This document shows, piece by piece, positions 9,105 to 58,973 of a stretch of 64,000 nucleotides of DNA (the stretch's first letter is position 1; each line of letters opens with the position of its first letter). Below the pieces are notes generated by a model. That model was not told the origin of the DNA and did not search any database. It was given only the letters and a program-made list of their open reading frames with translations. The DNA is from Escherichia coli (GTDB lineage Bacteria > Pseudomonadota > Gammaproteobacteria > Enterobacterales > Enterobacteriaceae): assembly GCF_046105845.1 (NCBI RefSeq), contig NZ_CP151004.1; one strand, 5' to 3'. The position numbers and the translations under genes are program-made.

Positions 9105-9118
9105 TCAATATTTATGAA

Positions 9119-37842: not shown

Positions 37843-38757
37843 TCACTCAAAATAGTCCATATCCAGTTTCGGCACCTTCAACAAACGTGAAGAAACCCCT
37901 ACTTCGTTTTCGATCATTAAGTGCACCAGGCGTTCCCCATCAACCAGCACCATACCCTCGACGGATTGGGCAAAGTCACGCGCCTGAGAAGTAAACCCAG
38001 AAGTGGTAATAAACACCCCACGTTTCGCTTTTTGCCCAGCCAGTGCGCCGTAAAATGCCTGTAATTCTGGCCTGCCTACAGTATTCTGCCAACGTTTTGC
38101 CTGAACATAAACTTTCTCCAGGCCAAGTTTATCAAGCGATATCACACCATCGATGCCACCATCTCCAGTACCGCCAACACGCTGCAAATCATCACGGTGG
38201 CCGCCATACCCCAGGCGATGCAAAACATCCAGAACAATGACTTCAAAGCGCGAAGGAGAAACCTGCAATAAGTTTTCCAGAACCTCATCAGCCACCGCAT
38301 CACGAAGCTCTTTTAGCGCCTGATCTAACCGATCGTCCGGGCTGCTCTTTGCAAGTTCTTCATGATCGGGAGAGTCGGCTTTCGGATCTAAATCGACGGC
38401 ATCCGGCCGTGACTTAAGTTTGACATTCACAAAAGCGAAGGCCAGATGGTTCGTCTCCTGCTCCGTCATTGGCTGGGGATGAGACGCAACCCAGTCAAAA
38501 CCCGCAGGAGTCAGGCACCATTTGCCACGCGACAAACTTTGCGACAACCCGGCACGTTTTAAACGGTCATGCGCCCAGCCTGCACGATTTTTATAAACAA
38601 GTTGTCCGCTGGTAATGACTTTCGCTCGCTGGCTGTCATCCAGTCCTAATGCATCCGCGGCAGCCTCATGAACATCACGCGCGGCTGCACCTTCCGGTTT
38701 TGTCGCCAGATAACGCAGAACAGGTTCAATAAATTTGTCATAGGTTGGAACCGTCAT
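37843..38757 (-). CDS. mrr: Type IV methyl-directed restriction endonuclease Mrr
   Basis: 304 aa MTVPTYDKFIEPVLRYLATKPEG...; PD-(D/E)xK region ...VISLDKLGLEKVYVQAKRW... Confidence 0.95.
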   Translation of the reverse strand: MTVPTYDKFIEPVLRYLATKPEGAAARDVHEAAADALGLDDSQRAKVITSGQLVYKNRAGWAHDRLKRAGLSQSLSRGKWCLTPAGFDWVASHPQPMTEQETNHLAFAFVNVKLKSRPDAVDLDPKADSPDHEELAKSSPDDRLDQALKELRDAVADEVLENLLQVSPSRFEVIVLDVLHRLGYGGHRDDLQRVGGTGDGGIDGVISLDKLGLEKVYVQAKRWQNTVGRPELQAFYGALAGQKAKRGVFITTSGFTSQARDFAQSVEGMVLVDGERLVHLMIENEVGVSSRLLKVPKLDMDYFE

Positions 38758-38944
38758 AGTACATCCTTGCAGAATCAGGTAGATGTTTTTCGGCTACTAT
38801 AACACTACAAAAATAGACGAACACGTTAGAAATGAGTCAGTTGCTGTGACTCCGGTCATTGCCCGGAAAGGTACAGAAAGCTAAGATAGGGCGTTATGGG
38901 CCTTAAATATTTGGACAGGCCCACACAGCAATGGATTAATAACA

Positions 38945-41900
38945 ATGATGAATAAATCCAACTTCGAATTCCTGAAGGGCGTCAACGACTTCACTTATGC
39001 CATCGCCTGTGCGGCGGAAAATAACTACCCGGATGATCCCAACACGACGCTGATTAAAATGCGTATGTTTGGCGAAGCCACAGCGAAACATCTTGGTATG
39101 TTACTCAACATCCCCCCTTGTGAGAATCAACACGATCTCCTGCGCGAACTCGGCAAAATCGCCTTCGTTGATGACAACATTCTCTCTGTATTCCACAAAT
39201 TACGCCGCATTGGTAACCAGGCGGTGCACGAATATCATAACGATCTCGACGATGCCCAGATGTGCCTGCGGCTAGGCTTCCGTCTGGCTGTCTGGTACTA
39301 CCGTCTGGTCACCAAAGATTATGACTTCCCGGTGCCGGTATTTGTGTTGCCGGAACGTGGCGAAAACCTCTATCACCAGGAAGTGCTGACGCTAAAACAA
39401 CAGCTTGAACAGCAGGCGCGAGAAAAAGCGCAGACTCAGGCAGAAGTCGAAGCGCAACAGCAGAAGCTGGTTGCCCTGAACGGCTATATCGCCATTCTGG
39501 AAGGCAAACAGCAGGAAACAGAAGCGCAAACCCAGGCTCGCCTTGCGGCGCTGGAAGCACAGCTTGCCGAGAAGAACGCGGAACTGGCAAAACAGACCGA
39601 ACAGGAACGTAAGGCTTACCACAAAGAAATTACCGATCAGGCCATCAAGCGCGCACTCAACCTTAGCGAAGAAGAGAGCCGCTTCCTGATTGACGCGCAA
39701 CTGCGTAAAGCAGGCTGGCAGGCCGATAGCAAAACCCTGCGCTTCTCCAAAGGCGCACGCCCGGAACCCGGCGTCAATAAAGCCATTGCCGAATGGCCGA
39801 CCGGGAAAGATGAAACGGGTAATCAGGGCTTTGCGGATTATGTGCTGTTTGTCGGCCTCAAGCCCATCGCGGTGGTAGAGGCGAAACGTAAAAATATCGA
39901 CGTTCCCGGCAAGCTCAATGAGTCGTATCGCTACAGCAAATGCTTCGATAATGGCTTCCTGCGGGAAACCTTGCTTGAGCATTACTCGCCGGATGAAGTG
40001 CATGAAGCGGTGCCGGAGTATGAAACCAGCTGGCAGGACACCAGCGGCCAACAACGGTTTAAAATCCCCTTCTGCTACTCGACCAACGGGCGCGAATACC
40101 GCGCAGCAATGAAGACTAAAAGTGGCATCTGGTATCGCGACGTGCGTGATACCCGCAATATGTCGAAAGCCTTACCCGAGTGGCATCGCCCGGAAGAGCT
40201 GCTGGAAATGCTCGGCAGCGAACCGCAAAAACAGAATCAGTGGTTTGCCGATAACCCTGGCATGAGCGAGCTGGGCCTGCGTTATTATCAGGAAGATGCT
40301 GTCCGCGCGGTGGAAAAGGCAATCGTCAAGGGTCAACAAGAGATCCTGCTGGCGATGGCGACCGGTACCGGTAAAACCCGTACCGCAATTGCCATGATGT
40401 TCCGCCTGATCCAGTCCCAGCGTTTTAAACGCATTCTCTTCCTTGTCGATCGCCGTTCTCTTGGCGAGCAGGCGCTGGGGGCGTTTGAAGATACGCGTAT
40501 TAACGGCGACACCTTCAACAGCATTTTCGACATTAAAGGTCTGACGGATAAATTCCCGGAAGACAGCACCAAAATTCACGTTGCCACCGTACAGTCGCTG
40601 GTGAAACGCACCCTGCAATCAGATGAACCGATGCCGGTGGCCCGTTACGACTGTATCGTCGTCGATGAAGCGCATCGCGGCTATATTCTCGATAAAGAGC
40701 AGACCGAAGGCGAGCTGCAATTCCGCAGCCAGCTGGATTACGTCTCTGCCTACCGTCGCATTCTCGATCACTTCGATGCGGTAAAAATCGCCCTCACCGC
40801 CACCCCGGCGCTGCATACGGTACAGATTTTCGGCGAGCCGGTTTACCGTTATACCTACCGTACCGCGGTTATCGACGGGTTTCTGATCGACCAGGATCCG
40901 CCTATTCAGATCATCACCCGCAACGCCCAGGAGGGGGTTTATCTCGCCAAAGGCGAGCAGGTTGAGCGCATCAGCCCACAGGGGGAAGTGATCAACGACA
41001 CCCTGGAAGACGATCAGGATTTTGAGGTCGCCGACTTTAACCGTGGCCTGGTGATCCCGGCGTTTAACCGCGCCGTCTGTAACGAACTCACCAACTACCT
41101 TGATCCGACCGGGTCACAAAAAACGCTGGTCTTCTGCGTCACCAATGCCCATGCCGATATGGTGGTGGAAGAGTTGCGTACCGCGTTCAAGAAAAAGTAT
41201 CCGCAACTGGAGCACGACGCGATCATCAAGATCACCGGTGATGCCGATAAAGACGCGCGCAAAGTGCAGACCATGATCACCCGCTTCAATAAAGAGCGGC
41301 TGCCCAATATCGTGGTAACCGTCGACCTGCTGACGACCGGCGTCGATATTCCGTCGATCTGTAACATCGTGTTCCTGCGTAAAGTACGCAGCCGTATTCT
41401 GTACGAGCAGATGAAAGGCCGCGCCACGCGCTTATGCCCGGACGTGAATAAAACCAGCTTTAAGATTTTCGACTGTGTCGATATCTACAGCACGCTGGAG
41501 AGCGTCGACACCATGCGTCCGGTGGTGGTGCGTCCGAAGGTGGAACTGCAAACGCTGGTCAATGAAATTACCGATTCAGAAACCTATAAAATCACCGAAG
41601 CGGACGGCCGTAGCTTTGCCGAGCACAGCCATGAACAACTGGTGGCGAAGCTCCAGCGCATCATCGGCCTGGCCACGTTTAACCGTGATCGCAGCGAAAC
41701 GATAGATAAACAGGTGCGTCGTCTGGATGAGCTATGCCAGGACGTGGCGGGGGTGAGCTTTAACGGCTTCGCCTCGCGCCTGCGGGAAAAAGGACCGCAC
41801 TGGAGCGCCGAAGTCTTTAACAAACTGCCTGGCTTTATCGCCCGCCTGGAAAAGCTGAAAACCGACATCAATAGCCTGAATGATGCGCCGATCTTCCTCG

Positions 41901-42457
41901 ATATTGACGATGAAGTGGTGAGCGTAAAATCGCTGTACGGTGATTACGACACGCCGCAGGATTTCCTCGAAGCCTTTGACTCGCTGGTGCAACGTTCCCC
42001 GAACGCGCAACCGGCATTGCAGGCGGTGATCAATCGCCCGCGCGATCTCACCCGTAAAGGGCTGGTTGAACTCCAGGAGTGGTTTGACCGCCAGCACTTT
42101 GAGGAATCTTCCCTGCGCAAAGCGTGGAAAGAGACGCGCAATGAAGATATCGCTGCCCGGCTGATTGGACATATTCGCCGCGCTGCGGTGGGCGATGCGC
42201 TGAAACCGTTTGAGGAACGTGTCGATCACGCGCTGACGCGCATTAAGGGCGAAAACGACTGGAGCAGCGAGCAATTAAGCTGGCTCGATCGTTTAGCGCA
42301 GGCGCTGAAAGAGAAAGTGGTGCTCGACGACGATGTCTTCAAAACCGGCAACTTCCACCGTCGCGGCGGGAAGGCGATGCTGCAAAGAACCTTTGACGAT
42401 AATCTCGACAACCTGCTTGATAAATTCAGCGATTATATCTGGGACGAGCTGGCCTGA
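38945..42457 (+). CDS. hsdR: Type I restriction enzyme R subunit HsdR (type IA, EcoKI-like)
   Basis: 1170 aa; SF2 motor motifs MATGTGKT and VVDEAHRG. Confidence 0.95.
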   Translation: MMNKSNFEFLKGVNDFTYAIACAAENNYPDDPNTTLIKMRMFGEATAKHLGMLLNIPPCENQHDLLRELGKIAFVDDNILSVFHKLRRIGNQAVHEYHNDLDDAQMCLRLGFRLAVWYYRLVTKDYDFPVPVFVLPERGENLYHQEVLTLKQQLEQQAREKAQTQAEVEAQQQKLVALNGYIAILEGKQQETEAQTQARLAALEAQLAEKNAELAKQTEQERKAYHKEITDQAIKRALNLSEEESRFLIDAQLRKAGWQADSKTLRFSKGARPEPGVNKAIAEWPTGKDETGNQGFADYVLFVGLKPIAVVEAKRKNIDVPGKLNESYRYSKCFDNGFLRETLLEHYSPDEVHEAVPEYETSWQDTSGQQRFKIPFCYSTNGREYRAAMKTKSGIWYRDVRDTRNMSKALPEWHRPEELLEMLGSEPQKQNQWFADNPGMSELGLRYYQEDAVRAVEKAIVKGQQEILLAMATGTGKTRTAIAMMFRLIQSQRFKRILFLVDRRSLGEQALGAFEDTRINGDTFNSIFDIKGLTDKFPEDSTKIHVATVQSLVKRTLQSDEPMPVARYDCIVVDEAHRGYILDKEQTEGELQFRSQLDYVSAYRRILDHFDAVKIALTATPALHTVQIFGEPVYRYTYRTAVIDGFLIDQDPPIQIITRNAQEGVYLAKGEQVERISPQGEVINDTLEDDQDFEVADFNRGLVIPAFNRAVCNELTNYLDPTGSQKTLVFCVTNAHADMVVEELRTAFKKKYPQLEHDAIIKITGDADKDARKVQTMITRFNKERLPNIVVTVDLLTTGVDIPSICNIVFLRKVRSRILYEQMKGRATRLCPDVNKTSFKIFDCVDIYSTLESVDTMRPVVVRPKVELQTLVNEITDSETYKITEADGRSFAEHSHEQLVAKLQRIIGLATFNRDRSETIDKQVRRLDELCQDVAGVSFNGFASRLREKGPHWSAEVFNKLPGFIARLEKLKTDINSLNDAPIFLDIDDEVVSVKSLYGDYDTPQDFLEAFDSLVQRSPNAQPALQAVINRPRDLTRKGLVELQEWFDRQHFEESSLRKAWKETRNEDIAARLIGHIRRAAVGDALKPFEERVDHALTRIKGENDWSSEQLSWLDRLAQALKEKVVLDDDVFKTGNFHRRGGKAMLQRTFDDNLDNLLDKFSDYIWDELA

Positions 42458-42658
42458 CACGTATACACTTCATCCTTCAGGCTACCTCTGCGTTGGCTGC
42501 GCTCGTTCACCCCGGTCACGTACTTCTGTACGCTCCCGGGGATTCACTCACTTGCCGCCTTGATGCAACCTGAATGATTTTGTGTATATTACCCTCGGCA
42601 ATTTCTTTTTCTGCGGCCCCAAACAATGCGGGCCGCTGCTTAATTTACGGAACTCACA

Positions 42659-44248
42659 ATGAACAATAACGATCTGGTCGCGAAGCTGTGGAAGCTGTGC
42701 GACAACCTGCGCGATGGCGGCGTTTCCTATCAAAACTACGTCAATGAACTCGCCTCGCTGCTGTTTTTGAAAATGTGTAAAGAGACCGGACAGGAAGCGG
42801 AGTACCTGCCGGTAGGCTACCGCTGGGATGATCTGAAATCCCGTATCGGTCAGGAGCAGTTGCAGTTCTACCGTAACCTGCTGGTACATCTGGGCGCCGA
42901 CAATCAAAAGCTGGTGCAGGCGGTGTTCCAGAACGTCAACACCACCATTACCCAGCCGAAACAGTTGACCGAGCTGGTCAGCAATATGGATTCACTGGAC
43001 TGGTACAACGGTGCGCACGGTAAGTCGCGCGATGACTTCGGCGATATGTACGAAGGGCTGCTGCAGAAGAACGCCAACGAAACCAAGTCTGGCGCGGGCC
43101 AGTACTTCACCCCGCGTCCGCTGATTAAAACCATTATTCATCTGCTGAAACCGCAGCCGCGTGAAGTGGTGCAGGATCCGGCAGCAGGTACGGCGGGCTT
43201 TTTGATTGAAGCCGACCGCTACGTTAAGTCGCAAACCAATGATCTGGACGACCTTGATGGCGACACGCAGGATTTCCAGATCCACCGCGCCTTTATCGGC
43301 CTCGAACTGGTGCCCGGCACCCGTCGTCTGGCGCTGATGAACTGCCTGCTACACGATATTGAAGGCAACCTCGACCACGGCGGCGCAATCCGTCTGGGCA
43401 ACACCCTGGGTAGCGACGGTGAAAATCTGCCGAAGGCGCATATTGTCGCCACTAACCCGCCGTTTGGCAGCGCCGCAGGCACCAACATTACCCGCACCTT
43501 TGTCCACCCGACCAGCAACAAACAGTTGTGCTTTATGCAGCATATTATCGAAACGCTGCATCCCGGCGGTCGTGCGGCGGTAGTGGTGCCAGATAACGTG
43601 CTGTTTGAAGGCGGCAAAGGCACCGACATCCGTCGTGACCTGATGGATAAGTGTCATCTGCATACCATCCTGCGTCTGCCGACCGGTATTTTTTACGCTC
43701 AGGGCGTGAAAACTAACGTGCTGTTCTTTACCAAAGGGACGGTGGCGAACCCGCATCAGGATAAGAACTGCACCGATGATGTGTGGGTGTACGACCTGCG
43801 TACCAATATGCCGAGCTTCGGCAAGCGCACGCCGTTTACCGACGAGCATTTGCAGCCGTTTGAGCGCGTGTATGGCGAAGATCCCCACGGTTTAAGCCCG
43901 CGCACTGAAGGTGAATGGAGTTTTAACGCCGAAGAGACGGAAGTTGCCGACAGCGAAGAGAACAAAAACACCGATCAGCATCTGGCTACCAGCCGCTGGC
44001 GCAAGTTCAGCCGCGAGTGGATCCGCACCGCGAAATCCGATTCGCTGGATATCTCCTGGCTGAAAGATAAAGACAGTATTGATGCCGACAACCTGCCGGA
44101 GCCGGATGTATTAGCGGCAGAAGCGATGGGTGAACTGGTGCAGGCGCTGGGCGAACTGGATGCGCTGATGCGTGAACTGGGGGCGAGCGATGAGGCCGAT
44201 TTGCAGCGTCAGTTGCTGGAAGAAGCATTTGGTGGGGTGAAGGAATGA
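42659..44248 (+). CDS. hsdM: Type I restriction-modification M subunit HsdM (N6-adenine methyltransferase)
   Basis: 529 aa; SAM motif DPAAGTAGF and catalytic NPPF. Confidence 0.95.
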   Translation: MNNNDLVAKLWKLCDNLRDGGVSYQNYVNELASLLFLKMCKETGQEAEYLPVGYRWDDLKSRIGQEQLQFYRNLLVHLGADNQKLVQAVFQNVNTTITQPKQLTELVSNMDSLDWYNGAHGKSRDDFGDMYEGLLQKNANETKSGAGQYFTPRPLIKTIIHLLKPQPREVVQDPAAGTAGFLIEADRYVKSQTNDLDDLDGDTQDFQIHRAFIGLELVPGTRRLALMNCLLHDIEGNLDHGGAIRLGNTLGSDGENLPKAHIVATNPPFGSAAGTNITRTFVHPTSNKQLCFMQHIIETLHPGGRAAVVVPDNVLFEGGKGTDIRRDLMDKCHLHTILRLPTGIFYAQGVKTNVLFFTKGTVANPHQDKNCTDDVWVYDLRTNMPSFGKRTPFTDEHLQPFERVYGEDPHGLSPRTEGEWSFNAEETEVADSEENKNTDQHLATSRWRKFSREWIRTAKSDSLDISWLKDKDSIDADNLPEPDVLAAEAMGELVQALGELDALMRELGASDEADLQRQLLEEAFGGVKE

Positions 44249-45615
44249 GTGCGGAGAAATTGCCGGAGGGGTGGGTTGAGTGTGAATTATCCGAACTCGG
44301 TAACATTGTTACAGGGAAAACTCCCAGTACCAAGGAGCCTTCCAATTTTGGAGGCAGCATTCCTTTCATTAAACCAGGCGATCTTGATCTCGGTGGCTAT
44401 ATCATGAATACCGCCGATACTCTGACGGAGAAAGGGTTATCTCTTGTCCCCACTCTTCCTGCCAATTCAGTCGTTGTGACGTGTATTGGAAATTTAGGAA
44501 AAGTTGGAATTACCGCTAAAAAATCAGCATCTAATCAACAAATAAATGCATTGATCCCGTCAGAAAAGCTAAATGTAAAATTTGTTTATTACCAAATTTT
44601 AACATTAAAACCATGGTTAGAGTCTCAATCAGCAGCTACTACAATTGCGATTGTGAACAAGAGCAAATTTTCTCAGGCACCATTTAAATTCCCGTCGCTT
44701 GCCGAACAAAAAATCATCACTGAAAAACTCGATACGCTGCTGGCGCAGGTAGACAGCACCAAAGCACGTCTTGAGCAAATCCCACAAATCCTGAATCGTT
44801 TTCGTCAGGCTATTCTAGCTAATGCTGTGGAAGGAAAATTGACCGACGAATGGCGAGCCGGAAAATGTTATATTACAGAAATCAAAAAAATATCTGATAT
44901 TATTCAGAATGCTCAAGTCGGATTAGTTCGTTCAGCTTCAGATCAAAGCGAAATATGCACTCAAAAAATGAGAACGCCTTATATAAAAATGAATAACATT
45001 CACAATGTTCTCGGAACAAATTTAGAAAAACTCGCTTATGTCAACTGTGATAGCTATGAACTGGAAAAATATAGATTAAAAAATGGAGATTGGCTCTTTA
45101 ATACACGAAATAGTTATGAGTTAGTTGGTAAATCCTGTGTCTGGAATGGATGTAGCAATGCTGTATATAATAATAATATATTAAGAGTTAGACTAAAAGA
45201 AAACTACAATTCTGTTTTTTTAGATTATTGGTTTCACTCGTTCTATGGAGTGAGCATGCTTAATAGTATTAAATCCGCAACAACAAATGTTGCTGCGATA
45301 TATCAGAAAGAACTCTTAAGTAAAAGTGTTCCATTCCCCCCCCTTCCCGAACAAGCCGAGATTGTTCGCCGCGTCGAACAACTCTTCGCCTACGCCGACA
45401 CCATAGAAAAACAGGTCAACAACGCCTTAGCCCGCGTTAACAACCTGACGCAATCCATCCTGGCAAAAGCGTTCCGTGGTGAACTCACCGCCCAGTGGCG
45501 GGCCGAAAACCCGGATTTAATCAGCGGAGAAAACAGCGCCGCCGCGTTGCTGGAAAAAATCAAAGCTGAACGCGCAGCCAGCGGGGGTAAAAAAGCCTCG
45601 CGTAAAAAATCCTGA
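44245..45615 (+). CDS. hsdS: Type I R-M specificity subunit HsdS, apparently non-EcoKI TRDs
   Basis: 456 aa; ATGA overlap with hsdM; conserved N-terminal, central (LAEQKIITEKLDTLLAQVDSTKAR) and C-terminal regions flank two low-GC variable TRDs. Confidence 0.9.
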   Translation: MSAEKLPEGWVECELSELGNIVTGKTPSTKEPSNFGGSIPFIKPGDLDLGGYIMNTADTLTEKGLSLVPTLPANSVVVTCIGNLGKVGITAKKSASNQQINALIPSEKLNVKFVYYQILTLKPWLESQSAATTIAIVNKSKFSQAPFKFPSLAEQKIITEKLDTLLAQVDSTKARLEQIPQILNRFRQAILANAVEGKLTDEWRAGKCYITEIKKISDIIQNAQVGLVRSASDQSEICTQKMRTPYIKMNNIHNVLGTNLEKLAYVNCDSYELEKYRLKNGDWLFNTRNSYELVGKSCVWNGCSNAVYNNNILRVRLKENYNSVFLDYWFHSFYGVSMLNSIKSATTNVAAIYQKELLSKSVPFPPLPEQAEIVRRVEQLFAYADTIEKQVNNALARVNNLTQSILAKAFRGELTAQWRAENPDLISGENSAAALLEKIKAERAASGGKKASRKKS

Positions 45616-45749
45616 TCATTATTTTCTGGCGCACCTTTCCGGTGCGCTTTTTATTATTTTACGCCAATCATAACTCACGCAAATATATTTAAATCATTCC
45701 AGAAATTGCCTATTTTATTCTATTTTTAGCTGGACTTTCCCTGTATTTA

Positions 45750-45765
45750 CTGATGATATATCCAG
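45750..45765. promoter_or_regulatory. Putative LexA (SOS) box upstream of symE
   Basis: CTGATGATATATCCAG (CTG-N10-CAG) about 80 bp upstream of symE ATG. Confidence 0.4.
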
Positions 45766-45842
45766 GTATTTAGCGCGGTGCGGATGTGCGCCAACACACC
45801 CGCACCGCTCATCACAATCACTATTCCAGGAGAATAGCAGTT

Positions 45843-46184
45843 ATGACTGACACGCATTTTATTGCACAACCGTTCGAAGCAGAAGTCTCCCCGGCAAATA
45901 ACCGTCAATTAACCGTGAGTTATGCGAGCCGCTACCCGGATTACAGCCGTATTCCCGCCATCACCCTGAAAGGTCAGTGGCTGGAAGCCGCCGGTTTTGC
46001 CACCGGCACGGCGGTAGATGTCAAAGTGATGGAAGGCTGTATTGTCCTCACCGCCCAACCCCCCGCCGCTGAAGAGAGCGAACTGATGCAGTCGCTGCGC
46101 CAGGTGTGCAAACTGTCGGCGCGTAAACAAAAGCAGGTGCAGGCGTTTATTGGAGTGATTGCCGGTAAACAGAAAGTCGCGTAA
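45843..46184 (+). CDS. symE: SOS-induced toxin-like protein SymE (AbrB/SpoVT fold)
   Basis: 113 aa [52 protein letters not shown]... Confidence 0.9.
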
Positions 46185-48771: not shown

Positions 48772-48793
48772 GCGGTAAGTTTTATAGAAAATA

Positions 48794-48820
48794 CCGCTCC
48801 CGACACCACATCGGGAGCGG
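48794..48820. terminator. Hairpin between convergent mcrC and large helicase gene
   Basis: ccgctcccga-caccaca-tcgggagcgg 10-bp perfect stem; A/T-rich on minus-strand downstream side. Confidence 0.5.
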
Positions 48821-48827
48821 CTCATCA

Positions 48828-51800
48828 TCAGGAGGCGATCACCTCCACCAGCACATCCGTTGCCCAACTCTCTTCGCTGTTGGCGACATTCCCTTCCTTG
48901 CAGGCCTGAGCCATTTTGACTAACTGGAAAGAAACGTCATCGCGGAAATCAAAGTAATGCCATTGCGATGCAAAGTTGATGCGCCAGTAGCCCATCCCCT
49001 GATCGAAGCGGATCTTCAATACCTGACCATCATCAAAAGTCACCGTCAGTTTACGATGGTGAGGGATATCGCGCGGCGAGTCGAACACCGTCAGTTCTAC
49101 CGGCCTGCCCAGCGCAGCAGCAAACCACTGATCAGCGAAATCCTGAAAATCCGCTATGCTCATCCAGTCATGGAAAGGCCGGTTACCGGGGCGATCTTTA
49201 TCTTTAAATAGCGTATCCAGCGTCACTTCAGCGCCATCGGTCAGCTTTGTTTTTAGCGGTCTCAAAATTGATCCCAACAACGCCAGCGCAACCGGGTTTT
49301 GCAGATAGCGATCGGTATAGTGAACGCCGGTAATTCGCGTGTTATTCATCAGTGACTGCGCTTCTTCATGGTCGTTAAACAGCACGTCCCAGAAGCGTTG
49401 CCCAAACTGCGACAGTGGTCCATTCAACTGTTTGTGGATCTGAATGTCTTTGACCCGCTCGACAGCGTTGGCGGCTTTAGCCGGCAGAATAAATTCGTTC
49501 AGCTCTACCGTTTTATAGCCGAGACTACGTACCACCAGTTCGTCATTCAGGTGCCACTCCGGCCCCGGAATCGTTGCCTGCTGGCTACGAGAGGCCAGCG
49601 TCATCACGCGATCGGCAAAGGTGACCTGAGCAACGATCGGTAATTTCAAATCCTGTTCAACATGGCATAGCCGCACACCCAGCGCAGTAAATTGCGATAG
49701 TTCGTGCAACAGGTCCGGGTCATCCACTCCCGCAGGAATAACAAGATCGACCTCGACGTTGTCTTTTAGCCGATAGTTCTGAACCGCCGCGCGGAACTGA
49801 CGTGCGTATAAATCCCACTCATTGGGCGCGCCGGTCATCCACAGGGTGAGCTTTTCAGCGCCTTCGTTAATCGCCCGGCGAATCGTATCGCCAATGGCGC
49901 CAGGGCAGTAGCGGGCATCCGGCAGCGAGAATGTCTCTTCATCCGGTAAACCGATGTAATACGTGAAGTCATCGCCAAGCCAGGCCAGCGCCGCTTTGCG
50001 ATCCAGCAAATCGTGATCGTGGCGAGTCTGGGAATCAAGCAGGCATTCACTACATGCAGTCTCACAATGGCGGCAGCCTAACTGTTTCACCATTCCCTGC
50101 AATATAGCTTCAATGTGTACCGGTGCGCTGGAGGCAAAACCTGCACCACCGCTGATCACATCATAAAGCTGTACGGCTAATACCGATTGCCCATCCTCCA
50201 GTCTGACCGGACGTACAGAATAGCCGAGTTCTGCGGCGGAGATACCCAGAACGCCCGCCAGCGCCTGACGCAGAGCAACCGCCAGAGTCATGGCAACAAT
50301 CCGCCCCTCCTCTGTGTTATCTGGCAGATACTCGCCGTTTTGCGGTTTGCGCAGAACCATTTCAAAGACATCGGTGCGCGCCAGTGCGCCCAGGGTGACG
50401 TTCTTCATGAGTGCCGTCGAACCGGGGCAAATCAGACGATGATTCTGGCTATCGCGGTCCGCTTTACCCGGACGCGGTGGATAGTGAGCTTCCATGCTTT
50501 TCGGCGCATCATTTTCATTCAGCATCGACTCAGCACGGCCACAGCTCAGACACAATGCATAACCGTGTCCACCTTCCCCCAAACTTTGCTGGAAAACATG
50601 CCCATCAGCCCCAGAAGCCATATAACCCATTAGCGGGTTAGGCAACGGTACGGGCTCTGCTTTAACAAAGACCCACGCGGGGACAACCGGGACGAATTTC
50701 ATGGTTTCAATATTGTTCGTTACCGGAGCGTGTGCATCGGTGACAAACCCGGCAGGCTGCAGCACCTGACGGCGATTATCCATGATTATTTTTTCGCCGC
50801 AGGCGCTATTGGAGCAAAAGAGCATCCCGGAACTGCTCATCCCCTCTTCATAGCCAATGGTCCCGCATTTGTGACAGCGCCAGGCGCAATCCAGACGCTG
50901 GGCTTCATTGGTATCAGCATTAATGTTGTGCCAGTGCAGTGAGACACCGGCAGAGCGGAAGACACGGCCATCAAGAATGATCTCTGCTCCCGGTGCATAT
51001 TCACGAATGGCAACACCGAGGTTACGGGAAGGTAATCCTTTATAACGGGAGACGTTATCTTCACGGTCCTTTTTATCACGACTTTTTTGCGATTTTTCGC
51101 GGATATAATCTTCCATTGTGAAGTTATCAAACGTCACTACATCTGTCGGGAAACCGTATCCCGGCAAGAAGGTTCTGGCAGCTAGATCGCGCAGCAGATA
51201 CTCGCCACAGTGCCGTTTCTTCTCCAGCTCTATGCGCTTACGATAAGGCGTTTGCGGCTGCGACTCACGCTCCTGTGTCACGAGATCGCGATAAACGGAG
51301 AGCCACCGCTGCTGCAGGAAGGTGATCGCGTTGATTGTTTTATCCCGCAGATATTCGGCTCTTGCACCATGCAACGCCGTACCTTTCACCAGCCGTTCCA
51401 GCGCCGTGTCGATATCAAGAACAGGGCGTTCCAGCCAGACTTTGAAGCGTTCGCATTTTGACTGCCCGTCATCTTCACCGAAAAACCAGAGGCTATCGAG
51501 GCTGGTTTTCTCTTTATCGGTTTCGCCAATAACGTTACATAAAAAGTCGGACAGTAATAATGCATTGACGTGACGTTGCACCAGTCGGGCGGAGTTCATC
51601 GCGACCATGGGTGCCGGGATCATGGTTTCAAATGGCCAGAGCGGGTTGGCAAAAACCTGCTGGTCGTGTGGGTTACCTTTACATAGGGTGTAAGAGATCG
51701 CACGTGATTCTTTACTACGCCCGGCTCGCCCGGCGCGCTGTAAATAGTTGGCCGGATGTGGCGGTACGTTGTTCATTACCACCGCAGTAATGCCCCCGAT

Positions 51801-54800
51801 ATCAACCCCCATTTCCATGGTGGTGGAACAGTTGAGAACATTTAGTTGCCCATTCTTGAACATCTTTTCATAGCTTTGCAGACGTTCTGACGACTGCTGG
51901 GCAGAGTGCTCGGCAGTGCGATAGTAGAAACCGCCTTCCACGACACGATCGTTGATGTCTGTCCAGACGTTTTCCGACCGCAATTGTGCGATCAGCGGAT
52001 CATTGCTGACCCAGTCGCGTGCTTTTGCCAGACCCTCTGCGTAGTCTTCCTGTGAACGATCCAGCTTCCAGATTTCCGGCATGGTGACTTTCTGCGCGAC
52101 AAAAGTGTCATATTGCGCCTGGGTAAGATGCTCGAACGAAATATGGGTAGGCAGATAAGGGGTTAAGCCTTTAAAAGCCGTATCCAGGATTTTATTGGTT
52201 ACCGGGCAAATCCAGGCATCCGTGATTAATGAAAAAGTCATATGCTCTTTCGGTAAATAAAAACGGTTGCCATCGGGTTTCAGTACTGCAAGCGGTCCGG
52301 TAAGTTGGGCCCATGCTTCTTTCAGCCATGTATTGATAATATCAATAGTCGCCGTATTGACGGTTTTGAATCCAGCCCCCAGCATCAGTAACTTCGCTAA
52401 ACGATGGGATACGTTGCCATTACGAATTTGAGGCCAGCGTCTGTTCTGATTATCTTCAGGATCTTTTGATTCCGGGTTACGGACGAATTTTGATGAAAAA
52501 CGGCTACCGATCCAGTTTTTCAGCTCATCATCCAGCTGTGTGAAGTTGCTCTCACGAACGTAATGATCCAGCGTAACTTTGAGAAAATCGCGCCAGTCAT
52601 CCAGCGTTAATCCTTTTTCCTGCCAGTGCAGAGGGATCTTATGTATTTTCTCCAGCCCCAGGTAACCAACCTGAACCAGCCCTTGTGTTTCCAGGCTGTT
52701 AGTCCGTTTAGGGCGACGCATGAATTCCCGGAATAACAACATTTCCGAAAGCTTTAGAGGCCCGCCGTTTTCATTAAACACTTCAGGCTTAAGATAATGG
52801 TTATATTGCAGAACCGGGCCACGGATATCGGCTCTCTCTTTAAGCTCGTTAACCATTTCTGTCCAGGTTCGGGATACCAGAGTAATTGCAGCTTTTCCAC
52901 CGATTGCAGACTGGTAAGCCTGTTCAAGCTGCTCGGCCTGCGCTTCTGATAATTTCGCTTGATCCGGCAATCCCCAGCTTCGATATTCTTCTGCCTGCTC
53001 ACGGGCTTGCTTTACCCTGGTCGCTAATTTTTCCAGATCGGCATTAGCGTTCGGCGCCGTGGGCGTTTGCGTTCGTTGATGCCAGCTCAGAATTTCGACT
53101 ACGCTTCCGCGTAAGCGACTACGTTCTGCTTCTTGCTGCATACGCACCGCCATCCGGGCTGTCCCTTGTCGACTATCCGTAAAGGTAATGAGTCGACGTC
53201 CTCGCCCTGGCAACGAATCTGGTCCGACGCCCTCTTTGCCTTCATCACTGGCAAAGTCCTGACAATACTCAAGAACGGTAGGCACGATGTTAGTAACGTA
53301 AAATGGCCCACCTAATAATGCACGCCGAAAGGGTTGTTTTCCGCTCATGCCTCGGTAGCCACAGCCGCTGGCGCTACAAACCTGTTCAATATCATTAATA
53401 ATCAGCGGAATGCTGTCATTATTAATAACGCCAATACGGCGCGTCTGACGGTCGAGGCGTTGTAGGGTATAGCCTGTCTCGCTGGTCTCTCCTGCGGCAA
53501 TAATCAACGGAGGCTGGAAACTGTTCTCTTTTTCGACTTTTTCCTCTGTAGTGTCATGTTCAACAGGTACTTCATCCTGCAAGGAGAACTCATCGCCACC
53601 TTTATTTTCCCATTGGACAAGTTTGCCCTTTTTGTCCTGCGCCAGAAGATGAGGCTCATTACAATCATTACAGAACGCCACTTCGTATACAGGGCTTCCA
53701 CAGTCACAATTTTGTCGCTGGTTCACATACACATAGCCAAAGGGCCAGCCTTTTTCGAGCGGTGTACCGTGCTTTAATCTGCAATCTTTATCAACACAAG
53801 CCCATATTCCCTGGGTATTACGCTGGAAGATATGCGCCCTGACTTTAAGAAATGCGGGATCCTTTGCATTAGGTTGAGTCCCTGAACAGACATCGATCCA
53901 ACGCAGTACTTCCTGCTGGCTGTAATGCTGTTTTGTCAGCACGTTTAACCGCTCTGTTATCTCATCCAGCTTCATCGGATTGGGCTGTTTGACCAACATC
54001 TCACGTATGTAACGCGCTTCGGGGGAATGCGTAAGCGCATAAAAGCGATCAGGACTTATACCTTTAATTTTATTATCATTTTTATCTCTTAGATCCAGAT
54101 CGGGTATTTGCTCTATTTCGTCTAACGGAAGAGAAACGTTTTTGGATGGTTCCAGTTCAGGAATCACCCGACTTCCGTCCAGAACATCGATGCGCTCCTT
54201 CGGGATACCGGATAATTCAGAGAGAAATTTTTTCAGCTGCTTTTCGACGTCGCTGCCGGCAATGGTCGCAGAGGTCGCTACAAAGCGCACATCATCTGGC
54301 GTCACGCCAAACGCTGTCATCACACGACGCAGCTGGAGCGCCAGTTCAGCGGCCTGCGACCCGACATAGGTATGCGCTTCATCCAGTACAATCCAGCGTA
54401 GTGATTTTTGTGCTTTGGATTGCTGGATAATCGGGGCGTCGACCTGGCGAACCATCATATATTCCAGCATCGTGCCGTTGGTCACCAGAATCGGGGCAGG
54501 TTCTTCACGCATTTTTTCGCGCGAGAGCACCTCATTCGGCCTTTTTGCCTGTTCGCTTTTTACCGAAGCGTGTAGGTTTTCGGTGTTACCGTTGTAAAGG
54601 CAGTAGCGGATCCCGGTACCAAAACCACGCGTCCAGGCATCCAGACGCTCGCGCTGTGAATTAATCAGGGCGTTCAATGGATAGAGAAAAAGGGCTCGGA
54701 CACCGACCAACGGATTGTTGCCATTTTCATGCAGTTCCCGGTAAAGATCTTCCAGCACCGGTACCATAAAACATTCCGTTTTACCTGAACCCGTACCACT

Positions 54801-55172
54801 GGTTACCACCACTGAATGTTTCTTTTCCAGCAAAGCTTTCCAACTGGCTAACTGGTGTGTAAAAGGCTTCCAGTCAGCACCAAATCGGTACCGGCCATTA
54901 CTCTGATCATCCAGTGAATCAACCACTGCTTTGCTCAACAATGCGTTGCCTTCCGTCAGACTGCGCATCGTGTGGTTTGACTCCTTCCAGCCAAACATTT
55001 GCTGGAATACCGGAGAAGCAAGGAATGAGCCCGGTTTCCCACAATCAGCCCCCATTTGTTGCGCGAGATGTTCACGCAGCTGCGGGTTGGTTACGCCCAT
55101 GATACTGAGCGTTGCTTCAGTTGAACGAGACAACGATTGTTCAATAAGTGACGAAAAATAGCGTGTAGTCAT
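48828..55172 (-). CDS. Large SF2 helicase with C-terminal Cys clusters (DUF1998-like); candidate DruE of a Druantia type III-like system
   Basis: 2114 aa; Walker [16 protein letters not shown] (aa ~125-135), DEAH box IVLDEAHTY (~262-269), motif III ATSAT, motif [10 protein letters not shown]; Cys pairs CHKCG...CSNSACG and CLSCG. Confidence 0.85.
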
Positions 55173-55184
55173 CCTTATTCCTTT

Positions 55185-58100
55185 TTATTTTTTAGCAACA
55201 TAACGCAACAGGCTGCACTGAAAGATGGTCTTAAACCAGCGGGAATCGAAGTCCCTGACTTGCCTCAGGAAAAATACGGCACCGGGTTTACGGTCAAATA
55301 CAGCTTCAAAAGAAGTATTTCCGCTTGCCACAGCTGCAGCGAAGACGGGTAACCAGGCCACGGAATAGCGGTGATTTGCGTCAGGATTAATACCAATCAC
55401 TGGCTTTTTTTGTGACATCATCCATTTATACAGACGCTTGCAGCCATATTCAGGCCAGCGAGCTTCACTGTGCTCACGTAAAAGCTCCTGATACCACCCG
55501 TGGACACAAGATTCAGGAATAGACGGAGGGAGATATCCGTTACTTAACCATTTCTCAATTTCATCGGCATATGTCGGGAACACGAGCCCCAGCCGTTGAA
55601 ACATATTAGTAACCAGTAATTTCTGGGTTTCCTCCGGTGCACCTTTTTGGCTCAGGAACAATTTGAAACGCTCAGATGCAGCTTTGATCTCAAAGATGGG
55701 GAAAAACTCCCATAGAATAGGGAACTCATTCTCAATACGACTCAGGTACTCTGCTGACATTTCAAATTTGAAGAGCGACATTGCCAATGCCTGCGGATGC
55801 TGCACCAGTGCACGCCATACTTCAAAGGTTGCCAGTGGTAAATACCCGAATTGATCGTACAGGCTACGCATAAATTGCCAGCCGGAATGGGCAGGATCGT
55901 TAGCCATCTGTCCGAGAACCAGTGTGATGGTATTAACTTCTGCCTGTGGATTAAAAAGCTGGGTCGCTTTCTGCAATGAGCGGATGTTGCTTTCTTCTAC
56001 CGGTAACGAAGATTCGCCACGAATGAAGCAGGGACGAAAAGCCATCTCTTCACCCGGTTTAGGGACAACCAACCACGGTCCATTTTTGTTAACGATTGAG
56101 CTCAACTCATATTCACCGACAGGCACTCCCTCGCTCATTCTAGATGCTAAGGGAATGGATTTCCTCTCGGGTTCACTTAACAGCATGATAACGGGGGAAG
56201 GAATCTGCCCAGCACGATGGTTCACTGACTGGCTGAGTAATAGTTCTTTTTCATAATCATAGCGCAGGCTGTATTTATAGCGACGAATTTGCCAGGCCAT
56301 GACCACACCTGCCCCCGTAATACGCATCTCAACAACCTGATCAATACCTGCCTCAAGTGAAATCAGGTTCTCAATATGTTCGCGAAGACTATAGAGATTC
56401 AATTCAACAGGACGATCGCTCAACGCCGTATAACACCATTCATGCCATGCCTGTAATCCACTAACGGAGCGCAAATACAACTGCAATGTATATTTTGTCG
56501 GCTCACCATTTCTGGAGAACAGAAACGCTCTGGAACCCAGCAGATCATGCAGCGTAATGTTTTTATCCAGAGGACGTCCGTTTACATCAAGAGCGAGACA
56601 GCCTTTAGCGGGAAAAGGTAACTCAATGTCGATGGGGTCAGCCGCCAAATTAGGCAGAACTTGTAATGTAATAAATGCCGGAGGTACCCCTTCCGCTTTA
56701 AGTTGTATCTCTGTTCGCCCCTCAGTACGCTTACGTGTAGCCTCCAATGTTTTATCTTTAAGTTTTGCTACACAAGGATGCTGTGTGGTGATTAAGATAG
56801 TGCCTTCATTTGCGTGCATTCCACCTTTTATCTCAATACTGAAATCAGCAGGCAAGATACCGATTTTGCGACGCAAGAGCGTTTCATTGTTACTATTACG
56901 GATAGAAAGATATTGAGCCCCCAGCATCTCTTGTATATGACATTGCTCAATTGAAATTCCGCTCAGGTAACGCGTTACATCAATGCTTTGAATATCCGGT
57001 AGTGTAGAAATGACTTTTGGTACACCAATAAATGTTTCATCTGGATGACAAACCCAGCTTGCACGCTTTCCATTTAGAGCAAACCTTCCGATGCTGATTT
57101 GTTCTCTTCCGGTGCGAATCCGATAAGTTTCATTTGCTGTAACTGTAACGTCCTGACATCCCTTCACAGGTAGTGCTTTTAGTCCTAATACGTTTACTGC
57201 GCTCGATTGGCCATCAAAACCAGCAACATTGCTATTATCCCGAGGGAGTACAATCAGAACATCGCTGCTTCGCACACTGCAAGAAGCCTGTCCCTGTAAC
57301 AGCCATTGATCTGCATCAACGATGAAGGTTAACGGCACCTCACCAATGGCAATTTCACTGTCATCAAGTTTAATGCTCCCAACAATCATCCCTCCAGCAC
57401 GAGCCACTAATGACAAACCTGCCGATGGATTTTGCCTGACAAATCTCACTTCGCTTTTACGTAATCGAACTGTTGCCTGTCTGTTTTCCAGGGAAGCATA
57501 GGCTGGCCCAAGGCCAGAGACTTCCTCACCATCTTCACAAATGGCAAGTTCAAAGCGCGTAGTTGACGGCTCGCTTGTTACAGGAAAGGAAACTTCGTCC
57601 GGAAGAGATACTATCACCCTAAGCTCATCTGGATGCTTTTCTGACCAATAGAATTGGCAACGCGTACTCTTATTTTTTTGTAGTCGAGGCTTAGCCTCTA
57701 CAGAGGCTGCGCATAGCAGTCCATTCAAAAAATGCGTTCCTGTTTCATCATCTAACGGTATTGGAAACTCGCTTCGCCAGGTAGGGTGAACCTTCTCAAG
57801 CTGTTGTACTGGTTCTTTGTGATTTATTAGGTTGTGAGTAAGTACTAAGGAATTGAGGTTATCAGCCATATGACTGATAAGTTCTACAGAGGTATCTTCG
57901 CTAAAAACAGTTGGCAGCGCTGATTTTTCTATGACAGCTCTTGCCAGCGAAAGGGCAGAAAAACCTGACTGCTTTGCTTGCTCATATTGTCCAAGGATCC
58001 TGGAGAAAACAGCCAGAAAGCGACTGTCTGATTCTTTGAGTAGCCGGAAAGGTAAACCACCTTCACTGAATAATGTTCCGAGAAAATTGCGTCGTTCAGA

Positions 58101-58475
58101 TTCATAAAATCGAATTGGGCGCAGCCAGTAATCTTCCATCCCTTTCGGTACGATAGTACCAAGCTCTGTGGCGGTGAATGAAATCCCTATTTTTTTATAT
58201 ATAGGGTCCCACGTCCATCCGCATTGCCGTTCATAATCCCTGCGGTACCACTCAGAGCAAAAAAGAACAAAACAGGCAGCAAAGTCCCTATTACATATAT
58301 TAGATTGTGATTGATCGACCGCACGGAGTAGCTGCGTTAATTGGGTATATTCATCATTGGTTGCATGATATTCATAAAGAGGACGGCCATCCGGTTGTCT
58401 CAACCCTCTAAGATTCACAAAGTTACTTAGCCAGGAAGTACATTTTACCCATGAAATGTATTCTGATTGACCCAA
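55185..58475 (-). CDS. Large protein with no recognisable motif; candidate DruH-like partner of the helicase
   Basis: ORF 55185..58523 (GTG); preferred TTG start at 58475 preceded by AAGGAG with 6-nt spacer; 12-bp gap to downstream helicase gene. Confidence 0.8.
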   Translation of the reverse strand: MGQSEYISWVKCTSWLSNFVNLRGLRQPDGRPLYEYHATNDEYTQLTQLLRAVDQSQSNICNRDFAACFVLFCSEWYRRDYERQCGWTWDPIYKKIGISFTATELGTIVPKGMEDYWLRPIRFYESERRNFLGTLFSEGGLPFRLLKESDSRFLAVFSRILGQYEQAKQSGFSALSLARAVIEKSALPTVFSEDTSVELISHMADNLNSLVLTHNLINHKEPVQQLEKVHPTWRSEFPIPLDDETGTHFLNGLLCAASVEAKPRLQKNKSTRCQFYWSEKHPDELRVIVSLPDEVSFPVTSEPSTTRFELAICEDGEEVSGLGPAYASLENRQATVRLRKSEVRFVRQNPSAGLSLVARAGGMIVGSIKLDDSEIAIGEVPLTFIVDADQWLLQGQASCSVRSSDVLIVLPRDNSNVAGFDGQSSAVNVLGLKALPVKGCQDVTVTANETYRIRTGREQISIGRFALNGKRASWVCHPDETFIGVPKVISTLPDIQSIDVTRYLSGISIEQCHIQEMLGAQYLSIRNSNNETLLRRKIGILPADFSIEIKGGMHANEGTILITTQHPCVAKLKDKTLEATRKRTEGRTEIQLKAEGVPPAFITLQVLPNLAADPIDIELPFPAKGCLALDVNGRPLDKNITLHDLLGSRAFLFSRNGEPTKYTLQLYLRSVSGLQAWHEWCYTALSDRPVELNLYSLREHIENLISLEAGIDQVVEMRITGAGVVMAWQIRRYKYSLRYDYEKELLLSQSVNHRAGQIPSPVIMLLSEPERKSIPLASRMSEGVPVGEYELSSIVNKNGPWLVVPKPGEEMAFRPCFIRGESSLPVEESNIRSLQKATQLFNPQAEVNTITLVLGQMANDPAHSGWQFMRSLYDQFGYLPLATFEVWRALVQHPQALAMSLFKFEMSAEYLSRIENEFPILWEFFPIFEIKAASERFKLFLSQKGAPEETQKLLVTNMFQRLGLVFPTYADEIEKWLSNGYLPPSIPESCVHGWYQELLREHSEARWPEYGCKRLYKWMMSQKKPVIGINPDANHRYSVAWLPVFAAAVASGNTSFEAVFDRKPGAVFFLRQVRDFDSRWFKTIFQCSLLRYVAKK

Positions 58476-58973
58476 AGCAAGCTCCTTAGAGATAAAAGAT
58501 ACAAAAACAAAACCCCACAACACTTCTAATTTGAAAGAAAACTTTTCAAAATATCGTATAATTAATCAGGCGGCAACAACTAATTTTTCAGGTCGGTACT
58601 ATAAATTAATTTTAGATAAAAATGATATCAACCATCTATTAATCACAACTCATTTATCACCTGGTTTTATAATTTCAAATGAAAATAAATCTCAAACAAT
58701 CAAAAAGTATGCAGTAGCTAACATTTAACTTTCCAGGATATAAAACAATTAGAGAAACTGCACAATAGCGAATAATGAAAGTTGTAAAGTCAGTCAAAAA
58801 ACACAAGCAATCAGTGTGCGTTTTTTGACCGTTATCGACATGAGTTTAAAGAGTTTAGTGAAGAAGATATTCCTGTACACTCCATACCTATTGATGAATT
58901 GTCTCGGGAAAATTTTTATAACTTAATTTAAAAACATAAAAACGTTTTATTATATATAAATCTATACCCCCCC

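Follow-up and report, generated by a model that had tools for sequence, protein, structure and literature searches.

We found that the run of genes at 37843-58523 of the window, the 64,000-nt stretch of Escherichia coli DNA analysed here, is almost certainly the E. coli immigration control region (ICR) in a complete form, with a cargo that is swapped between lineages. The run comprises nine uninterrupted, contiguous genes (mrr, hsdR, hsdM, hsdS, symE, mcrB, mcrC, druE and druH/yjiT), and inspection of the ORFs across 37843-58523 revealed zero internal stops in all named island genes. The back-to-back block of about 20.7 kb reported by the initial annotation was therefore confirmed, all the genes named there being present, intact and contiguous. 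Its count of five defence modules was partly right: the gene systems are present, but SymE is not a shown defence gene, and the island contains one toxin-antitoxin pair alongside four nucleic-acid defence systems that are independent of one another. The roles given below to all five modules are predicted from family membership and the literature.

Position and content of the island

Synteny with annotated E. coli genomes places the island directly downstream of yjiA and upstream of yjiS-yjiR-rpn-mdtM-yjiN, and the yjiS, yjiR, rpn and mdtM ORFs were found within the window. Cross-strain alignment showed that the strain-variable DNA extends from 37798 to 58973, slightly beyond the gene run itself. 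Counts in 5426 complete E. coli genomes, a sample biased by numerous K-12 and B laboratory derivatives, revealed a strain-variable cargo in which type I and type IV restriction predominate. The features of the locus are as follows.

36841..37797 (+): yjiA, GTPase, conserved left anchor; its stop codon is where homology to every alternative layout ends
37798..37842 (no strand): yjiA-mrr spacer of 45 bp, filled by a REP-like palindrome; first variable DNA
37843..38757 (-): mrr, type IV modification-dependent restriction endonuclease, 304 aa, intact (Pfam Mrr_N and Mrr_cat)
38945..42457 (+): hsdR, type IA (EcoKI-family) restriction subunit, 1170 aa (GTGKT, DEAH and PD-(D/E)xK-like motifs)
42470..42595 (no strand): ERIC/IRU-like dispersed repeat in the hsdR-hsdM spacer, absent from strain EC24
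42659..44248 (+): hsdM, type I N6-adenine methyltransferase, 529 aa (N6_Mtase, NPPF motif)
44245..45615 (+): hsdS, type IA specificity subunit, 456 aa (two Methylase_S domains)
44278-44689 (+): hsdS TRD1, GC 0.39
44690-44857 (+): hsdS central conserved region
44858-45336 (+): hsdS TRD2, GC 0.31
45628..45648 (+): terminator-like hairpin and T run after hsdS
45748..45767 (+): candidate LexA-box-like site TACTGATGATATATCCAGGT, CTG-N10-CAG, upstream of symE (sequence match)
45772..45848 (-): symR antisense sRNA (Rfam RF01809, 93.5 bits, gathering score 61)
45843..46184 (+): symE, SOS-induced type I toxin, 113 aa (NCBIfam 226 bits, cutoff 132)
46346..47725 (+): mcrB, GTPase and DNA-binding subunit of type IV McrBC, 459 aa (GPPGVGKT and NTAD motifs)
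47725..48771 (+): mcrC, nuclease subunit of McrBC, 348 aa (NCBIfam)
48793..48821 (-): strong terminator hairpin with a 13-bp stem between convergent mcrC and druE; right edge of the mcrBC indel cassette
48828..55172 (-): druE, helicase-nuclease, 2114 aa (PADLOC DruE3, 2697 bits, full length)
55185..58523 (-): druH (yjiT; STY4851/ECs_5259 family), non-helicase partner (PADLOC DruH3, 1829 bits, full length)
58524..58973 (no strand): AT-rich spacer, about 29% GC, upstream of druH; last variable DNA before yjiS
58974..59138 (-): yjiS, DUF1127, 54 aa, right framework gene

The ICR, the archetype of a defence island, accounts for the classical K, B and C host-restriction phenotypes. It was reportedly published as the immigration control region by Sibley and Raleigh in 2004, and the K-12 version, mrr-hsdRMS-symE-mcrBC, is said to have been described by Raleigh in 1992. 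The same locus is defence hotspot #36 of Hochhauser et al. 2023, which "occasionally included Druantia and type IV RM" (PMC10121019), and a 2025 EcoSal review gives yjiA-yjiN as its anchors (PMC12707154). Nothing in the locus is thus new, as the ICR is published and Druantia and type IV systems are on record there (PMC12707154, PMC10121019); the feature was correctly recognised, had been described before and adds no new biology. What the window supplies is a reference copy of the undecayed locus, the K-12 version of which carries the yjiV/yjiT pseudogenes, together with base-level junctions of the swappable cassettes and a rare hsdS allele.

The restriction, toxin and Druantia modules

The mrr product combines an N-terminal winged-helix Mrr_N domain with an Mrr_cat nuclease domain bearing the D...(Q/E)xK motif. 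NCBIfam profiles gave no match for Mrr, and its identity stands on Pfam, PADLOC (mREase_IV, 580 bits) and DNA identity (99.6% at the nucleotide level to K-12 mrr). As a type IV enzyme, it would cut methylated DNA. The adjacent hsd genes encode all three type IA subunits, R, M and S; HsdR scored 1743 bits against the NCBIfam equivalog NF008521 (cutoff 729), and the hsdRM DNA is 96-98% identical to K-12-type hsdRM. HsdS contains two TRDs with conserved central and C-terminal regions, and alignment with other IA alleles is limited to the conserved regions. This allele is rare, as TRD1 was found in 5 of the 5426 genomes and TRD2 in 3; HCP5S3_I2 and ETEC1738 are among its carriers. By analogy with the EcoKI family, the products would assemble into an HsdR2M2S1 enzyme that methylates the host's bipartite sites and cuts unmodified DNA, the HsdS TRDs setting the target. 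In the one public annotation inspected, that of strain HCP5S3_I2, PGAP calls this hsdS allele two partial pseudogenes; the ORF is intact.

Downstream of hsdS, symR covers the ribosome-binding site and the start codon of symE (45843), the arrangement of a SymE/SymR type I system. The candidate LexA site is a single CTG-N10-CAG with 2 mismatches to the 20-nt consensus, and symE is reported to be under LexA control (PMC4147584). symE/symR is probably an SOS (LexA)-controlled toxin restrained by an antisense RNA. The symE core was detected in 2872 of the 5426 genomes and, in alternative layouts, symE/symR persists on the downstream side of the hsd genes, irrespective of their family. It fits a conserved framework segment within the island more closely than exchangeable defence cargo.

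McrB associates an N-terminal DNA-binding domain with AAA+ GTPase motifs, and the mcrB stop codon shares position 47725 with the mcrC start codon. Both proteins exceeded the cutoffs of their NCBIfam equivalogs (McrB, 1100 bits vs 637; McrC, 441 bits vs 338), identifying a type IV enzyme that would cut 5mC/5hmC DNA via GTP-driven translocation.

The last two genes had been annotated as a helicase pair. Two large intact genes are indeed present, but DruE alone is a helicase(-nuclease) and DruH is a non-helicase protein; by sequence, the two genes together form an intact Druantia type III system of predicted function. This type (DruH-DruE) was reportedly defined by Doron et al. in 2018. Its gene layout was recognised here, namely a two-gene druH-druE operon, a DruE of about 2100 aa and a DruH of about 1100 aa belonging to the YjiT family (NCBIfam YjiT_fam, 1262 bits). 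druH and druE are adjacent with a 12-bp spacer, and druH has two candidate starts, a TTG at 58475 that gives 1096 aa and a GTG at 58523 that gives 1112 aa. The DruE domain set is present, with DEAD/DEAH, Helicase_C and MZB/DUF1998 domains in Pfam and GSGKT and DEAH motifs, and druE is intact where its K-12 counterpart, yjiV, is a pseudogene. Both proteins are only distantly related to the solved Druantia III proteins (PDB 9tu7, 9tud): the window DruE aligned with solved DruE over its full length (1026 bits), whereas DruH matched solved DruH over its N-terminal 250 aa only (80 bits). DruH has been assigned to the YjiT family within the ICR in a study that gives the mechanism of Druantia III, which works on RecBCD-linked DNA intermediates (PMC13192584).

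Variability of the locus across E. coli

The initial annotation had proposed to compare the interval across E. coli genomes and had named invariance as the outcome that would contradict it. We observed that the whole layout (at least 80% of the interval) is kept in only 225 of the 5426 genomes and that unrelated cargo occupies the site elsewhere. The interval is hypervariable, and invariance therefore does not hold. Individual modules are more frequent: mrr was found in 951 genomes, type IA hsdRM in 938, mcrBC in 596 and any druEH DNA in 674, near-complete in 231 of them.

The K-12 ICR occupies the same position, between yjiA and yjiS-yjiR-rpn-mdtM-yjiN, with the same gene order and orientation, and shares 95-99.6% nucleotide identity with the window over mrr, hsdR, hsdM, symE, mcrB and mcrC. 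In contrast, the TRDs of K-12 hsdS differ, as only the conserved 34% of the gene aligns, and K-12 druE/druH are the deleted pseudogenes yjiV/yjiT (46% coverage), whereas the window pair is intact. Other strains diverge further. The ICR carries type IB hsd and GmrSD-like genes in O157:H7, type IA hsd and GmrSD-like genes in UPEC UTI89, BrnTA, Mrr-like and type ID hsd genes in Esc27, and penicillin G acylase in the "empty" sites of E. coli C type. These variants share the anchors, and their junctions are identical at the yjiA/yjiS stop codons, but to one or both sides of symE they carry wholly different cargo that shares no homology. Overall, cargo found at the same site comprises type IB and ID hsd, the Mrr-like PDC-S02, GmrSD-like DUF262/HNH enzymes, BrnTA and penicillin G acylase, and the alternative cargo is classed as defence-related by PADLOC.

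These layouts bear on whether the cluster is ancestral and vertically inherited, with strain variation arising from differential loss (deletion and IS decay) and no exchange of cargo. Loss is certainly visible: druE/druH of K-12 have lost two internal stretches (49616-51796 and 53950-56966), B strains are truncated via IS1, insertions of IS1, IS3, IS5, IS100 and IS621 occur, and 21AR0303 retains an hsd deletion remnant. However, non-homologous alternatives (IB/ID hsd, GmrSD-like, PDC-S02, BrnTA, penicillin G acylase) occupy the same slot, and loss alone is therefore insufficient. Furthermore, segment identity shifts between donor strains at module borders, and the hsdS TRDs recombine independently, as shown by O169:H41, which has TRD1 without TRD2. 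We thus regard a history of loss only as very unlikely, while differential loss from a larger ancestor could lie behind some of the layout states.

Junctions, mosaicism and probable cassette exchange

On the left, homology breaks at the yjiA stop codon (37797/8); on the right, it breaks at the yjiS stop codon (58969-58976) and resumes there in the layouts that keep yjiS (O157:H7, Esc27, 21AR0303 and 50EVA). yjiA and yjiS had both been presented as conserved flanks. This holds for yjiA, present in 5394 of the 5426 genomes, but yjiS is not universal: yjiS(-yjiR) was found in 3760 genomes, about 31% lack it, and yjiN is the accepted right anchor of the ICR. Inside the island, the edges of the symE/symR cassette lie at 45693/45711 and 46160/46180. 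The mcrBC cassette extends from 46181 to about 48794, bounds that were set because strain 120899 fuses symE directly to druE. Additional breakpoints fall at the TRD borders of hsdS (44277, 44690-44857 and 45337). The view that the spacers between modules are exchange points was borne out, as breaks do occur in spacers or at gene ends, with the qualification that not every spacer has one and extra breaks lie inside hsdS. A deletion of mcrBC by crossover between the hairpin following symE (about 46194-46214) and that at 48793-48821 was also considered; the junction in strain 120899 keeps druE-side sequence up to the symE stop codon, and therefore no simple hairpin-hairpin crossover of that kind accounts for it.

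The closest relatives differ from segment to segment. hsdS and symE are 100% identical to HCP5S3_I2, mcrBC and druE are 99.2-99.3% identical to 2012C-4221 and O169:H41, and mrr is 99.6-99.8% identical to K-12, while yjiX-yjiA is only 96.3-97.6% identical to these four strains. TRD1 of the window hsdS is common to O169:H41, TRD2 is not. Within the mosaic, mrr, hsdR and hsdM travel together (951 vs 938 genomes), as do druE and druH. A divergent Escherichia lineage had been suspected, as complete genomes reached at most about 97.9% identity across the island and 97.4% across the left flank. This was ruled out, as the first 14 kb of the window (a prophage) are 100% identical to several E. coli strains and island segments reach 99-100% identity with various strains. 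The low identity of the island as a whole reflects mosaicism and high local polymorphism.

Base composition is equally patchy. GC3 is 0.65-0.68 in hsdR and hsdM, 0.38 in hsdS and mcrB, 0.35 in mcrC, 0.40 in druH and 0.53 in druE; per-gene values follow the modules, in agreement with the proposal that the modular arrangement explains the compositional patchiness. The cumulative GC skew falls smoothly with no switch within the island; GC3, unlike GC skew, is informative on island composition.

A patchy, partly low-GC composition could also be that of a mobile genomic island of the conventional kind, an integrative element whose 21 kb would have been inserted together by site-specific recombination, and hotspot #36 is described as flanked by a transposable element (Hochhauser et al., PMC10121019), with an rpn-family gene 2 kb to the right of the window's island. 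Yet no integrase, transposase or tRNA gene occurs within the island or at its edges, and a search for direct and inverted terminal or att repeats at the island ends returned only short chance-level repeats. The absence of a resident site-specific recombinase and of att repeats is a feature of the ICR, the junctions lie at anchor-gene stop codons with no common att sequence, and the locus is reported to lack mobilising activity (PMC12707154). Moreover, all 684 places of druEH and all 596 places of mcrBC in the 5426 genomes lie on the chromosome, the median number per genome being one for each. Finally, the modules occur in many partial combinations and the best relatives differ per segment; the block therefore did not move as one unit, and we consider insertion of a single mobile element extremely improbable.

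The breakpoints and mosaic identity instead point to homologous recombination as the probable mechanism of exchange in a swapped ICR. The ICR would be a fixed chromosomal slot downstream of yjiA, in which restriction and anti-phage systems gather and are swapped among lineages. Homologous recombination in the framework segments (yjiA, symE/symR and yjiS-yjiR) would replace entire cassettes. The left cargo (mrr and an hsd family) would assort independently of the right cargo, which is mcrBC, GmrSD, Druantia or absent. The TRDs may be shuffled by recombination in conserved stretches of hsdS, and deletions and IS insertions would erode the systems, as seen in K-12, where druE/druH are now the pseudogenes yjiV/yjiT.

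Whether the order of the island is itself functional, combining a role of symE/symR in coupling or anchoring, synergy of Druantia III and a novel specificity of the TRD pair, is doubtful as a joint reading. Lying between the left and right cargo in over half of E. coli, symE/symR might be coupled to the nucleases beside it. Damage that restriction inflicts on the cell itself could be what it responds to, or it could be a selected homology anchor enabling cassette exchange. Druantia III might act in synergy with the breaks that the type I and type IV enzymes next to it introduce. On a smaller scale, the rare HsdS TRD pair (3 of 5426 genomes) might encode an uncharacterised type IA recognition sequence.

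The rpn-family (recombination-promoting nuclease) gene, 2 kb to the right of the island at 60971-61894, carries an in-frame stop in the window; a gene of this family beside the island could have contributed to exchange.

Gene content and module functions

The interval 37843-58523 is the immigration control region (ICR), a locus whose definition came from genetics in K-12. The ORF map revealed nine long open reading frames, each uninterrupted and separated from the next by short spacers, that fill the interval beyond the end of yjiA (37797). Each gene was identified independently of the others. Gene set and coordinates, drawn from the ORF map and profile matches, confirmed the initial annotation in that restriction and defence modules lie back to back between yjiA and yjiS.

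Features of the ICR and its borders, with per-gene GC3
mrr, 37843-38757, minus strand: Mrr_N and Mrr_cat domains; PADLOC type IV model, 580 bits; DNA 99.6% identical to K-12 mrr; GC3 0.47
hsdR, 38945-42457: NCBIfam equivalog for EcoKI-type endonuclease, 1743 bits (cutoff 729); GTGKT and DEAH motifs kept; GC3 0.65
hsdM, 42659-44248: N6_Mtase domain; NPPF motif; GC3 0.68
hsdS, 44245-45615 (10245-11615 of L001): two specificity domains; intact 456-aa ORF; GC3 0.38
symR, 45772-45848, minus strand: Rfam match, 93.5 bits (gathering score 61); overlaps symE start
symE, 45843-46184: above cutoff of its NCBIfam equivalog; GC3 0.62
mcrB, 46346-47725: above equivalog cutoff; GPPGVGKT and NTAD motifs; GC3 0.38
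mcrC, 47725-48771: above equivalog cutoff; GC3 0.35
druE, minus strand: 2114 aa; PADLOC DruE3, 2697 bits end to end; DEAD/DEAH, Helicase_C and MZB (DUF1998) domains; GC3 0.53
druH, minus strand: 1096/1112 aa; PADLOC DruH3, 1829 bits end to end; NCBIfam YjiT family match; GC3 0.40
yjiS, 58974-59138, minus strand: DUF1127, 54 aa
flanking genes: GC3 0.64-0.69

On their profile matches, the two large minus-strand genes are identified as Druantia type III, for which solved structures provide detectable relatives of both products (9tu7 for druE, 9tud for druH). The "helicase pair" read here initially is present as this gene pair, but only the druE product is a helicase. A Druantia III preprint places DruH in the YjiT family and its E. 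coli member in the ICR (PMC13192584).

Module functions were taken from the literature and family membership. On this basis, Mrr and McrBC would cleave modified DNA, and the type IA enzyme would methylate its own bipartite sites and cut unmodified DNA after translocation. symE is under LexA control and repressed by SymR (PMC4147584), and a CTG-N10-CAG motif at 45748-45767 is a candidate LexA site by sequence match. Originally reported to be an endoribonuclease, SymE was later found to bind DNA and condense the nucleoid (Thompson et al. 2022, as cited in PMC11894785). Because SymE is not known to act against phages, symE is a defence module only in a loose sense.

Variability and cassette borders

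Segment matches among 5426 complete E. coli genomes revealed that the interval is variable rather than invariant. The yjiA flank matched in 5394 genomes, whereas at least 80% of 37000-59500 was found in just 225. Matches to mrr occurred in 951 genomes, to type IA hsdR-hsdM in 938, to the symE/symR core in 2872, to mcrBC in 596 and to any druE-druH DNA in 674 (near-complete in 231). The resulting frequencies (type IA 17%, Mrr 18%, McrBC 11%) are of the same order as those given for Enterobacteriaceae in a 2025 review (14%, 22% and 6%, respectively; PMC12707154). yjiS-yjiR was found in 3760 genomes and is missing from ~31%, which fits the choice of yjiA and yjiN as ICR anchors in that review.

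The site is occupied by a DUF262/HNH enzyme, type IB hsd, symE and a GmrSD-like pair in O157:H7; by mrr, type IA hsd, symE and a GmrSD-like gene, without yjiS-yjiR, in UTI89; by brnTA, a Mrr-like gene, another type I family and symE in Esc27 (21AR0303 has a layout derived from this one by deletion); by penicillin G acylase only in 50EVA; and by brnTA, IS1 and then mdtM in 0H15. PADLOC recognized the enzymes of alternative layouts as defence-type proteins and returned no match for the penicillin acylase or BrnT.

Homology breaks were placed by pairwise blastn of the window against alternative loci and confirmed by junction alignments. All alternative layouts diverge right after the yjiA stop codon (37797/37798), and in those retaining yjiS homology resumes at the stop codon of that gene (58969-58976). 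The symE/symR cassette, from 45693/45711 to 46160/46180, is common to the layouts regardless of either neighbour. The mcrBC cassette extends from 46181 to ~48794; in strain 120899 mcrBC is absent, ~13 bp take its place and druE directly adjoins symE. In contrast to these cassettes, mrr, hsdR and hsdM almost always co-occur, and no separate exchange of druE and druH was seen in the compared genomes. The proposal that spacers act as exchange points holds for framework-gene junctions and mcrBC, but not for every spacer, and it overlooked intragenic exchange in hsdS.

Two similar terminator hairpins bracket the mcrBC cassette, at 46194-46214 (CTCCCGG...CCGGGAG) and 48793-48821 (CTCCCGA...TCGGGAG); the junction of 120899 looks unlike a simple crossover between them. 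The yjiA-mrr spacer (37798-37842, 45 bp) is a REP-like palindrome throughout (GCCGGATAAGGCGCAGCCGCATCTGGCC), also present in K-12 and absent from non-mrr layouts. An ERIC/IRU-like dispersed repeat occupies the hsdR-hsdM spacer (42470-42595) and matches the ERIC1R primer sequence at 42526-42547 with 3 mismatches (chance expectation none); EC24 lacks the repeat, and other strains have a related copy upstream of btsT.

Mosaicism, the hsdS allele and decay

Identity to HCP5S3_I2 is 100% in hsdS and symE but 96-98% in mcrBC and druE, which share 99.2-99.3% with 2012C-4221 and O169:H41. For mrr, identity to K-12 and to 2012C-4221 is 99.6-99.8%; for yjiX-yjiA it is only 96.3-97.6% to any of these strains. 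The island has no associated recombinase or tRNA gene and no terminal repeats. This segment-wise mosaic and the junctions at conserved-gene ends fit homologous recombination within framework genes, by which cassettes would be replaced.

hsdS aligns with other type IA alleles in three places only: over its first 33 bases, across 44690-44857 in the middle, and from 45337 to the 3' end. These are the known conserved regions flanking the two target-recognition domains (TRDs). TRD1 was found in 5 and TRD2 in 3 of the 5426 genomes. O169:H41 combines the same TRD1 with a different TRD2, showing TRD shuffling. PGAP annotation of this allele was checked in one public genome, HCP5S3_I2, where the identical DNA is given as two overlapping partial pseudogenes though the ORF is intact; the split is probably an artefact of the chimeric TRDs. 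The allele comes almost exclusively from pig isolates.

Decay of the island is frequent among strains. In K-12, deletion of 49616-51796 and 53950-56966 has left pseudogenes annotated yjiV and yjiT; B strains carry IS1 insertions in hsdS and a druE truncation bounded by IS1; and IS1, IS3, IS5, IS100 or IS621 lie inside or beside druEH in others.

The initial interpretation was essentially right, and every element had been published before. Sibley and Raleigh (2004, as cited in PMC12707154) described the ICR as a variable locus of cassette-like make-up. The account in the 2025 review (PMC12707154, section 60) agrees with the picture of recombination in framework genes, and the review also points out that the region maps to one of Milkman's "bastions of polymorphism". 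Our analysis adds base-level cassette borders, a Druantia III intact relative to K-12, and a rare hsdS allele probably mis-split by PGAP in HCP5S3_I2.

Composition and neighbouring segments

GC3 tracks the modules, so that their stacking explains the compositional patchiness, as initially suggested; overall GC of the hsdS TRDs is 0.39 and 0.31. Cumulative GC skew showed nothing special. The 500-bp spacer between druH and yjiS (58476-58973), presumably the druHE promoter region, has a GC of 29%, is kept wherever druH is present and holds a 65-aa ORF (58531-58728, plus strand) annotated in EC24 as a hypothetical protein.

Elsewhere, 1-15400 is a lambdoid prophage segment (ydfT antiterminator, DUF968, KilA-N, RusA, yfdN-yfdR genes) terminating in a tyrosine integrase that adjoins yjjG; its first 14 kb are 100% identical to prophages of Ec1119, NCTC11151 and other E. 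coli strains. The leuVPQ cluster of three tandem tRNA-Leu(CAG) genes (18607-18929) lies well outside the island, and no tRNA gene was found at the ICR borders. The tsr-btsT spacer (33000-34400) is AT-rich (GC 0.39-0.42); the window lacks the 11-kb hpa (4-hydroxyphenylacetate) operon that Ec1119 and 2012C-4221 carry here. An rpn-family (recombination-promoting nuclease/putative transposase) gene at 60971-61894 (minus strand) is interrupted by an in-frame stop close to its 5' end and, at only ~94.5% identity to comparison strains, is the most diverged shared segment of the window.
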